64,000 bases of DNA from Bacilli bacterium (GTDB lineage Bacteria; Bacillota_I; Bacilli_A; RF39; UBA660), in contig JAFRIU010000047.1 of assembly GCA_017432645.1 (NCBI GenBank), positions 12,107 through 76,106 on the forward strand, in the 5' to 3' direction. This document shows, piece by piece, positions 31,115 through 32,848 of this stretch (the stretch's first letter is position 1; every line of letters begins with the position of its first letter). Under the pieces are notes generated by a model, which saw nothing but the letters and a program-made list of their open reading frames with translations, was not told the DNA's origin and did not search any database. A program made the position numbers and the translations under genes.

Positions 31115-31888
31115 ATGAGGTGGATTCTGGAAAACTCCATTTTTCAATCTTTTCTAGCAGGATGCTTTACTTTTTTAGTAACAGTACTAGGTTCTGCCAT
31201 GATTTTTTTAATAAAAAAAGAAAATAAAAACATGATGAATATTATGTTAGCCCTATCAGCAGGAATCATGATATCAGCATCTTTCTTTTCTCTAATAAAT
31301 CCTGCTATAGAAATAGCAAATACCTTAAATCTAATAACTTGGTTCATCCTCTCTATTGGCTTTCTATCAGGAGCTATCTTTCTATTTTGGGGAGATAAAA
31401 TTTTTAATATTAATCAATGGAAATACAAAAAATCAATTATGCTTTTTTTATCCATTACCCTTCATAATATTCCAGAAGGTCTAGTACTAGGCGTTGGCTT
31501 TGCCTCTCTTACCTATATCAAAACAGACTTAAATAGTATCTTACCGGCAATTACACTAACCATAGGAATCGCCTTACAAAACTTTCCGGAAGGAAGCTCA
31601 ATAAGCCTACCACTATATAGAGAAGGAATTTCCAAAAAGAAAGCATTCTATTTAGGATCGCTCAGTGCAATAGTAGAACCAATTTTTGCAGTCGTTGGAG
31701 CACTTCTAGTTCTAAAAATACAAAGCTTGCTTCCCTTCATTATGTCTTTTGCAGCAGGAGCAATGATTTTTGTAACCATACAAGAATTAATTCCAGAAAT
31801 TGTGCAAAACAAAAGAAAAGATATGCTATCTCTTCTTCTCATGGTAGGTTTTACAATTATGATGATTTTAGAACTAATCATGGGATAA
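31115..31888 (+). CDS. ZIP family metal transporter (ZupT-like)
   Basis: Eight TM segments, HNIPEGL and QNFPEG metal-binding motifs. Confidence 0.75.
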   Translation: MRWILENSIFQSFLAGCFTFLVTVLGSAMIFLIKKENKNMMNIMLALSAGIMISASFFSLINPAIEIANTLNLITWFILSIGFLSGAIFLFWGDKIFNINQWKYKKSIMLFLSITLHNIPEGLVLGVGFASLTYIKTDLNSILPAITLTIGIALQNFPEGSSISLPLYREGISKKKAFYLGSLSAIVEPIFAVVGALLVLKIQSLLPFIMSFAAGAMIFVTIQELIPEIVQNKRKDMLSLLLMVGFTIMMILELIMG

Positions 31889-32509
31889 TTTCTCAATAGA
31901 AATCTTCTGATCCTTCTTTAAATATACACCATACAAATCTGTTTTAGGGGCAATGAATATTTGTTCCATCTTCTTCTCTTCTTTATCCACTATTTCTGTG
32001 GATATTTTTTTAAAAGAATACTGATGAGAATCCAGCACTTGAATACTATCATCCAACCATAAACACTCTTCTGGCCTCTTTTTATTGAGAATACTCCAAT
32101 ATCCAGAAGTAGTTTCCTTCCATCCAGGATTTACAAATTTTCCTCTTCCGCATTCAATATGACAATGATTTCCAGTAACATTGCCCTTTCTTCCCTCATG
32201 ATAAAAAACTTCTCCTTTTTCAATTCTTTTTCCAACGAAAAGATCACTAACATCATTATCATGAGCAAACAAAATGGTTAAATAATCCACTGTTCCATCA
32301 GGATACTCAACCTTATCCACACTTTCTAGCCACACTTCATTCGCATCATTAGCATAGATTTTCTTAATAATACCAGTAAAAGGAGCATAGACATCACTAA
32401 TAGAAGAATCTTTTCCTGCATTATCAATTGCATAACTTCCAGCATGAGTCCCCTCATCATAGCCCTGCGTAATTCTTAAATATTTACTAGGAAATAGAGG
32501 TTTTTCCAT
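31874..32509 (-). CDS. LAS-superfamily zinc peptidase (M15-like cell-wall peptidase/endolysin)
   Basis: THAGSYAID (HxxGxxAxD) and NHCHIE (HxH) match the LAS/M15 zinc-ligand pattern. The start codon directly abuts the upstream holin-like stop. Confidence 0.4.
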   Translation of the reverse strand: MEKPLFPSKYLRITQGYDEGTHAGSYAIDNAGKDSSISDVYAPFTGIIKKIYANDANEVWLESVDKVEYPDGTVDYLTILFAHDNDVSDLFVGKRIEKGEVFYHEGRKGNVTGNHCHIECGRGKFVNPGWKETTSGYWSILNKKRPEECLWLDDSIQVLDSHQYSFKKISTEIVDKEEKKMEQIFIAPKTDLYGVYLKKDQKISIEKLSHD

Positions 32510-32848
32510 CTACTGATCCTCCTTATTAATAATGTTTTCTTCCGATATAGAAATACCTTTTTGAGAAGTAATATCAGCATAAGAAGAAATCTTACCTTCT
32601 AATGATTTATAAATAGAATCTGCTCCTAAAAAAGAAAAAAATCCAACCCATAAATTATTAGGAAAATGAATATCTGTAAAAGAAAAACAAAAAAGAACTC
32701 CAACAAGAATATTTACAAAAAAAGAATACAAAACAATATACTTACTACTCCATAAAAGACCCTTTGTCTTTTGTATCAAAGTACAAGTAACTGCACTCAA
32801 AGCAATAGAAATAATCAACAATTGTTTTAAATATTGAAACTGAAACAT
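32510..32848 (-). CDS. holin-like small membrane protein
   Basis: 113 aa with 2-3 TM helices and a charged C-terminal tail. RBS AAGGAGG precedes the start. Sits directly upstream of the peptidase, as in a lysis cassette. Confidence 0.4.
   Translation of the reverse strand: MFQFQYLKQLLIISIALSAVTCTLIQKTKGLLWSSKYIVLYSFFVNILVGVLFCFSFTDIHFPNNLWVGFFSFLGADSIYKSLEGKISSYADITSQKGISISEENIINKEDQ

Follow-up and report, generated by a model that had tools for sequence, protein, structure and literature searches.

A holin-endopeptidase operon of phage origin in uncultured gut Bacilli and its possible role in mother-cell lysis

A 64,000-nucleotide stretch of DNA from a Bacilli bacterium of the RF39 lineage (assembly GCA_017432645.1, contig JAFRIU010000047.1, positions 12,107 to 76,106; hereafter the window, with positions counted from its first letter) carries two adjacent genes, coding for a holin homologue and an M23-type zinc peptidase, which form an operon of phage origin, old, vertically transmitted and under selection, and not a decaying prophage remnant. 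We propose as quite possible, though short of probable, that this operon is a domesticated phage lysis cassette whose role is to lyse the mother cell and set the spore free. Somewhat more tentatively, it may provide the first dedicated holin for endospore release, acting within a sigma-K mini-regulon (holin, M23 endopeptidase, CwlC-like amidase and zinc importer) that would lyse the mother cell in an order-level clade of gut Bacilli. If the promoter assignment on which the proposal depends is wrong, the pair still stands as a well-documented, anciently domesticated lysis cassette.

Both genes lie on the minus strand, in a locus of flat GC content (~30%). The first (32510-32848) opens with an ATG at 32848, with a GGAGG ribosome-binding site 5 nt 5′ of it, and encodes a membrane protein of 112 amino acids; its TAG stop codon (32510-32512) directly abuts the ATG (32507-32509) of the 211-aa peptidase gene (31874-32509), which appears to be translationally coupled to the holin gene. 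A preliminary description of the region, made from the DNA letters, had given the peptidase open reading frame (ORF) and the abutting codons at just these coordinates, and had correctly noted the two or three transmembrane segments and the charged tail of the first protein, but counted 113 residues in it. It had also recognized a classic holin-endolysin arrangement outside a prophage, and both the gene order, holin then lysin, and the identity of the two families bear this out.

Hydropathy analysis of the 112-aa protein reveals two strong hydrophobic segments and one weaker (residues ~9-26, 37-58 and 64-80), followed by a charged, hydrophilic C-terminal tail that is conserved and net acidic, and its AlphaFold model (predicted local distance difference test score, pLDDT, 74) contains helices at residues 4-31, 36-57 and 64-94. 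All 33 family members tested match PHROG 1299, annotated as “holin” (best E 1.2e-8), and 18 of the 33 give a weak match to Pfam Phage_holin_5_1 (Hol118; best E 2.3e-4), the holin family of Listeria phage A118; the family alignment has 31 invariant columns. Small size, two to three membrane helices, a hydrophilic charged C-terminus and a position beside a signal-less lysin, which together characterize holins, are all present, and the protein can be described as a Hol118-like three-helix holin homologue for which pore formation is predicted. Its viral relatives are distant: a pattern search found none in IMG/VR, INPHARED yielded one weak match, to the holin of Bacillus phage vB_BhaS-171 (E 0.09), and for small ORFs located 5′ of phage M23 lysins the best E against the holin profile was 0.14.

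For the 211-aa protein, Pfam returned Peptidase_M23 alone, at E 0.0028 (18.2 bits, below the curated cut-off of 28.7); one close homologue carries a precomputed PF01551 match, and the protein also matches PHROG endolysin families. A PDB profile search built from 48 homologues gave a single strong match, the C-terminal D,D-endopeptidase domain of phi29 gp13 (3csq, E 4.8e-23). The same structure headed the Foldseek list obtained with the AlphaFold model (pLDDT 88.7), at E 1e-11 and a root-mean-square deviation of 1.5 Å over 170 columns, followed by LytM, lysostaphin, Csd and ShyA, and phage lysins dominate the matches in the viral structure library BFVD. The zinc motifs are H22-x-G-x-x-A-x-D29 and H115-C-H117; none of H22, D29, H83 and H115 varies among the 48 diverse homologues, in which conservation of H117 is at least 90%, and the H-x6-D spacing is that of HKGTLCID in gp13. 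The preliminary description had the HxH motif right and misread the other as HxxGxxAxD, and of its label “LAS superfamily, M15-like” only the superfamily holds, the family being M23 by Pfam, PDB profile and Foldseek alike. No Pfam M15 match was obtained at E up to 1, nor was any M15 structure present among the top 50 Foldseek PDB matches. A non-peptidase fold, named there as an outcome that would overturn the reading, did not arise, the fold being of the LytM type. The M23 matches in profile and fold, together with the complete H/D/H/HxH set, identify an M23/LAS enzyme, not an M15 one, of the phi29 gp13 C-domain subtype, with a complete active site and predicted endopeptidase activity.

The catalytic domain of the peptidase extends from residue 1 to ~170 and is followed by a K/E-rich linker of variable length and a conserved 25-aa C-terminal motif, F[IV]APKxDLYGVYLKxNQKIxIE, which is specific to the clade. 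The N-terminus is not hydrophobic (maximum KD19 0.65), and hence there is no signal peptide, a feature that the preliminary description had proposed to look for. A YxxxD/E-type secretion signal in the tail was considered and dropped, since its spacing, inspected by eye, is not conserved in the family. Among 1247 relatives the catalytic domain occurs at the N-terminus of endolysin-like proteins of 250-340 aa and also inside large proteins; phage relatives share at most 57% identity, in the catalytic domain only, and have no C-terminal motif. The nearest relative among deposited phages and in BFVD comes from the 5.5-kb Alces alces faeces microvirus MP10 5560 (MG641182; L016), in which a 231-aa protein with a hydrophobic N-terminus (2310-3005) carries an M23 domain 40% identical to that of the peptidase, which hints at microviruses that infect walled gut Bacilli and bring along a lysin of their own.

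We scanned one genome per species and found the pair in 131 species, of which the best 80 were analyzed. Homologues of the two proteins (>800 and >320, at 60-82% identity) all come from metagenome-assembled genomes of uncultured gut or rumen “Bacilli”, the host clade being of the RF39/RFN20 type; one of its loci is labelled “Mycoplasma sp. CAG:877”, and the GTDB genus CAG-877 is a member of order RF39 (PMC8035907). The holin and peptidase genes are adjacent in 80 of 80 species-level genomes, far beyond chance. Both are full-length and intact in 81 of 81 genomes, and their median ratios of non-synonymous to synonymous substitution rates (dN/dS) are 0.24 and 0.22 (range given, 0.22-0.24), in agreement with the domesticated lysis cassette that the preliminary description had envisaged. 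The surroundings are conserved as well: in 68 of 76 species the ZIP gene adjoins that of the peptidase in convergent orientation, and in 54 of 56 rpsI lies upstream of the pair, in many cases directly before the holin gene, so that the place after rplM-rpsI is conserved, while the rpsI-holin interval differs between species. This interval is an insertion hot spot, occupied in the window (32926-35801, minus strand) by genes for two XRE-HTH membrane proteins, a GNAT-YoaP protein and an ICMT-like protein, and in other species (L009-L014) by quite different genes or none.

The absence of other phage genes, noted in the preliminary description, holds for 10 kb on either side of the pair: in the window and in four other species, no phage structural, replication or integration genes were found within that distance. 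The synteny comparison proposed there as a search for prophage remnants in related genomes likewise uncovered none, the position of the pair being fixed in all 80 species. The phage ancestry of the proteins would fit an inert prophage remnant, or a bacteriolysin accompanied by a membrane immunity protein; with 81 of 81 copies intact, dN/dS of ~0.2 and promoter and position conserved, we find either scarcely credible. In addition, without a signal peptide the peptidase cannot be a secreted bacteriocin, and no FemABX-type immunity gene is associated with the pair.

The region of 120 nt upstream of the holin gene was aligned for 81 species. In the window it contains, on the minus strand, a -10 element CATAGAGTA of the pattern CATAnnnTA (32864-32872), 24 nt before the holin ATG, and a -35 element GTGACC (32888-32893), 16 nt upstream of CATA. 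CATAnnnTA (consensus gCATAtAaTA) was found in 80 of the 81 species, mostly 24-31 nt before the ATG, as compared with 3% of random 64-nt windows and with 0/67 upstream regions of rpsI, 0/15 of rplM and 5/51 of essC; ahead of other neighbouring genes, too, it hardly ever occurs. The -35 box, GT(A/G)nC(A/C), is located at N16 from the -10 element, with T in 83% and C in 75% of species at fixed spacing, and usually comes directly after the T-run of an upstream terminator. In the window this place, after the ICMT gene, is taken by a hairpin at 32897-32917 (minus strand; AAAAGACT-TTTAT-AGTCTTTT plus a T run, read by eye), which was not listed by the terminator scan because it has only 2 G-C pairs; this weak terminator-like structure may insulate the pair from upstream transcription, and clear terminators occupy the equivalent position in other species, among them L055, where one follows rpsI.

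The combination of AC at -35 and CATAnnnTA at -10, 16-18 nt apart, is that of a sigma-K promoter. Indeed, mapped sigma-K promoters of Clostridioides difficile resemble the holin promoters, as seen in cotA (TTTTTGTAACA..., also given as CTTTTTGTAACA...), CD1067 (GTAACA-N17-CATAGTATT) and feoA (GTAACA...CATAGTTTA) (PMC3789822). We built -35 matrices from the C. difficile sigma-K and sigma-E promoter lists, which classed their own training sets correctly in 21 of 23 and 44 of 45 cases; by these C. difficile matrices, 56 of 71 unique holin promoters score better as sigma-K than as sigma-E. Some twelve further promoter regions in the window belong to the sigma-A type, with TTGACA or the extended -10 TGnTATAAT, and in none of them does CA precede the -10 box. 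In the holin promoters both this CA and the A that follows the box are fully conserved, and neither is a sigma-A feature. Taken together, these patterns suggest that the holin operon has its own promoter of sigma-K, or late mother-cell, type.

The same promoter architecture, at the same distance from the start codon and with a good -35 box, precedes only two other genes in the window. One is the neighbouring ZIP-family metal transporter gene (31115-31888, plus strand; Pfam Zip, E 2.8e-24), whose promoter, AAC-N17-CATAACTTA, is located at 31070-31098 (plus strand), 25 nt before the ATG. CATAnnnTA occurs 15-70 nt from the predicted ZIP start in 57 of 71 species, in 48 of them at 22-27 nt, with (T/G)AACA recognizable by eye 16-17 nt further upstream, and several of the remaining species have AATAnnnTA. 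The other is a gene for a CwlC-like protein without signal peptide (17763-18791, minus strand), to which Pfam assigns an Amidase_3 domain at residues 9-183 and three LysM domains; its promoter, GTGGCA-N15-CATATTTTA (18810-18839, minus strand), lies 27 nt before the ATG. The amidase gene is unlinked to the holin-peptidase pair, and its orthologues in 11 loci from other metagenomes (L157-L169) have a CATA-type -10 box in 10 cases, most of the 11 with a GTG[AGT]CA or GTAACC -35 box and CATAnnnTA ~16 nt downstream of it. A blind motif scan of ~1.5 Mb of related loci detected no recurrent gene family beyond holin, ZIP and amidase. The distribution of this promoter class thus delimits a set composed of a holin, two signal-less zinc-dependent wall hydrolases and a metal importer. 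One further occurrence, CATAAAATA before pgk (63861), is probably due to chance, its -35 box being out of register and the annotated start doubtful.

These promoters bear directly on the possibility that the pair acts in vegetative, housekeeping or stress autolysis, with the holin giving the peptidase access to the wall of growing cells, be it for cell separation, wall turnover, release of vesicles or DNA, or altruistic lysis. Universal retention of the pair in reduced genomes, beside ribosomal protein genes, would suit such a role, as would the predicted loss of most lyt/cwl endopeptidases in the common ancestor of these orders (PMC10868615), and the promoter geometry is compatible with sigma-A too. 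However, the promoter class is unlike the clear sigma-A promoters of the window, is common only to ZIP and the CwlC-like amidase, and has the fully conserved CA and A around its -10 box that sigma-A promoters do not, while a terminator separates the pair from rpsI. We consider an autolytic function of this kind unlikely.

The window also contains spo0A (58306-59100, minus strand; NCBIfam TIGR02875, 267.7 bits vs the equivalog cut-off of 200), which makes the organism a likely endospore former; Spo0A homologues with 74-100% identity are found throughout the same clade. In agreement with this, RF39 and some RFN20 families were predicted to be walled and to have many sporulation genes (PMC10868615), and the presence of LtaS-like, OatA-like and deacetylase genes in the window indicates that the organism is walled. 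The spo0A gene itself belongs to a conserved block of gap, pgk, tpiA, spo0A, dinB and the S10 operon, and its neighbourhoods in two other species contain housekeeping genes only. No other sporulation genes were identified in the window beyond spo0A and a generic polysaccharide deacetylase; a SpoIID-like assignment for the 352-aa gene at 24633-25691, guessed by eye, received no Pfam support and was discarded.

Endospore formation ends with mother-cell lysis, the least understood of its steps. In Bacillus this lysis depends on sigma-K-controlled hydrolases, including the Amidase_3 enzyme CwlC (PMC13599503, PMC6403190), and its mechanism and timing are still called open (PMC13599503). In the course of events that we infer for the clade studied here, sigma-K RNA polymerase would transcribe the holin operon, ZIP and the amidase gene in the mother cell late in sporulation, and the two hydrolases, to both of which ZIP may supply zinc, would build up in the cytoplasm. 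On reaching a critical level, the holin would permeabilize the mother-cell membrane; the endopeptidase would then cut peptide cross-links and the amidase strip stem peptides, so that the mother-cell wall would fall apart and the spore be freed. We find this the simplest reading, as it keeps the ancestral holin-lysin mechanism and accounts for the promoter class as well as for the co-regulated amidase. If it is true, it would show by what route lytic enzymes that lack export signals gain access to the mother-cell wall, offer a concrete and testable mechanism for setting the timing of spore release, represent a clear case in which a developmental programme has recruited a phage lysis module, and supply a sequence marker for sporulation capacity in uncultured gut bacteria of the RF39/RFN20 type. 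Our literature search found no paper describing a holin devoted to mother-cell lysis.

It should be kept in mind that several observations count against mother-cell lysis. The sigma-K assignment is read from sequence pattern alone: the A of its “AC” is conserved in only 34% of holin promoters, TAnnnT, the sigma-A core, is part of CATAnnnTA, and with a spacing of 17 nt the -35 box is similar to TTGACA as well. Within the DNA covered, the motif was not seen on any classical late sporulation gene, and of the regulators only Spo0A was seen, sigK and sigE lying outside that DNA. As to the proteins, the peptidase has no recognizable wall-binding domain, and the invariant tail of the holin is net acidic (4 K/R vs 7 D/E), which is atypical of holins. 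Mother-cell proteins without a signal peptide can, moreover, be spore-coat or germination enzymes. Finally, sporulation in the RF39/RFN20 lineages is itself predicted rather than observed.

Some of these points would equally suit a sporulation role other than lysis: the two hydrolases, produced in the mother cell, might end up on the spore to lyse the cortex at germination, or might act in engulfment, with the membrane protein as their partner or anchor and not as a pore. The same promoter evidence applies here as to mother-cell lysis, and the C-terminal motif of the peptidase could be a spore-targeting tag. YaaH/SleL and CwlJ are indeed examples of signal-less, LysM-bearing enzymes of the mother cell that associate with the spore. 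In addition, related families were reported to have neither spoIID nor gerQ (PMC10868615). Against such a role, the membrane protein is homologous to phage holins in all 33 members tested, and the holin-then-lysin order with coupled translation has been kept in 80 of 80 species, while deposition in the spore coat needs no holin; the -35 box, being of the sigma-K and not the sigma-E type, argues against engulfment. On balance, we give this alternative a low probability, and mother-cell lysis remains the reading we prefer.

The immediate neighbours named in the preliminary description, a ZIP transporter gene and an ICMT-family gene (ICMT/PEMT), are both confirmed by Pfam and the ORF map. The ZIP gene is convergent with that of the peptidase, their 3′ ends overlapping by 15 nt, and a terminator-like hairpin for ZIP (31984-32004) falls inside the linker-coding part of the peptidase gene. 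Neighbouring genes matter for a further possibility, that the pair performs non-lytic holin-dependent secretion of the type 10 secretion system (T10SS) kind, the cargo being a signal-less protein such as a phospholipase C-like protein (PLC) or the small proteins associated with the type VII secretion system (T7SS). A holin and a wall endopeptidase outside a prophage are what defines T10SS loci, and a Zn_dep_PLPC gene is found a few kb from the pair in many species. However, only 44 of 80 loci have it within 10 kb, and no cargo gene is present in or beside the operon, which is flanked by ZIP on one side and by variable genes or rpsI on the other, the rpsI-side flanks differing between species; known systems of this kind, apart from TcdE, are Gram-negative. 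Secretion of this type is therefore quite improbable in our estimation.

The end of essC is located 894 bp from the pair, close to the 1 kb given in the preliminary description, which, with S. aureus EssH in mind, considered a T7SS function for the pair plausible. In such a scheme the peptidase would assist the EssC machine by opening the wall, in the manner of EssH. Among 61 species with full flanks, essC does occur within 10 kb in 47, there at ~0.9-3 kb from the pair; in the other 14, however, the pair and ZIP have been retained and no essC lies inside these 10 kb, and the essC promoter, TTGTAA-17-TATAAT, is of the ordinary sigma-A type. Incomplete co-occurrence and different promoters led us to reject the link. 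Moreover, a gene in the opposite orientation lies between the pair and essC, the peptidase has neither a signal peptide nor a CHAP domain, and the essC cluster in the window is devoid of EssB, EsaA and EssA, all of which makes a T7SS accessory role very improbable.

The essC cluster is a minimal or atypical T7SS-like cluster in its own right. It comprises the gene for an EssC-like ATPase with FHA and FtsK domains (25701-30980, minus strand), 3′ of which only ORFs of 85, 72 and 70 aa follow, with no Pfam matches, the 85-aa ORF being YukD-like by eye. The cluster is conserved alongside genes for a Zn-dependent phospholipase C-like protein, AbiD and HtrA; the AbiD/Abi_2 abortive-infection gene (22557-23528, minus strand; PADLOC E 3.5e-62) lies a few kb beyond essC in many species. 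Neither the holin nor the peptidase matched PADLOC, AbiD giving the only match in the window, and a defence-system identity for the pair was discarded. A regulatory RNA was likewise ruled out, as no Rfam family reached its gathering score anywhere in the window (1-64000). The S10-spc-alpha and rplM-rpsI ribosomal protein operons carry known leader RNAs in other Bacilli; the window holds these operons, yet no Rfam leader RNA scored.

Comparison with phage lysis cassettes, represented by the Hol118-type holin of A118 and the gp13-type lysin of phi29, shows that the pair shares with them the holin-then-lysin order, coupled translation, a small three-helix holin with a charged tail, and a lysin without signal peptide whose M23 domain superposes on the gp13 C-domain at 1.5 Å. 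It differs from them in being chromosomal, inherited vertically in at least 80 species and surrounded by no phage genes; in its lysin, which has lost any wall-binding domain and gained the clade-specific 25-aa tail; and in its holin, which has an acidic tail, no close viral relative in IMG/VR and a promoter resembling those of a sporulation sigma factor. As for domesticated cassettes, the pair is similar to T10SS and to TcdE/TcdL in that a phage lysis cassette located outside a prophage is kept for host use. In contrast to T10SS, there is no linked cargo, the enzyme belongs to M23 instead of being an M15 peptidase or muramidase, the host is Gram-positive and likely spore-forming, and the proposed outcome would be that a terminally differentiated cell lyses completely.

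S. aureus EssH provides a parallel in so far as a wall hydrolase gene lies near essC, a link that is not conserved here; EssH is a secreted CHAP-domain enzyme and needs no holin, and the pair is unlike it in these respects. A possible counterpart in function is the sigma-K regulon of Bacillus with CwlC, CwlH and CwlB, wall hydrolases that the mother cell produces at a late stage, as our sequence-based reading suggests for those described here. CwlC and CwlH have no signal peptide, and the amidase of the window is of the same catalytic family as CwlC, Amidase_3, with a promoter that is sigma-K-like. The clade differs from Bacillus in its wall-binding module, which consists of LysM domains and not of SPOR-like repeats, and in the addition of an M23 endopeptidase with a dedicated holin; we know of no holin in the mother-cell lysis system of Bacillus.

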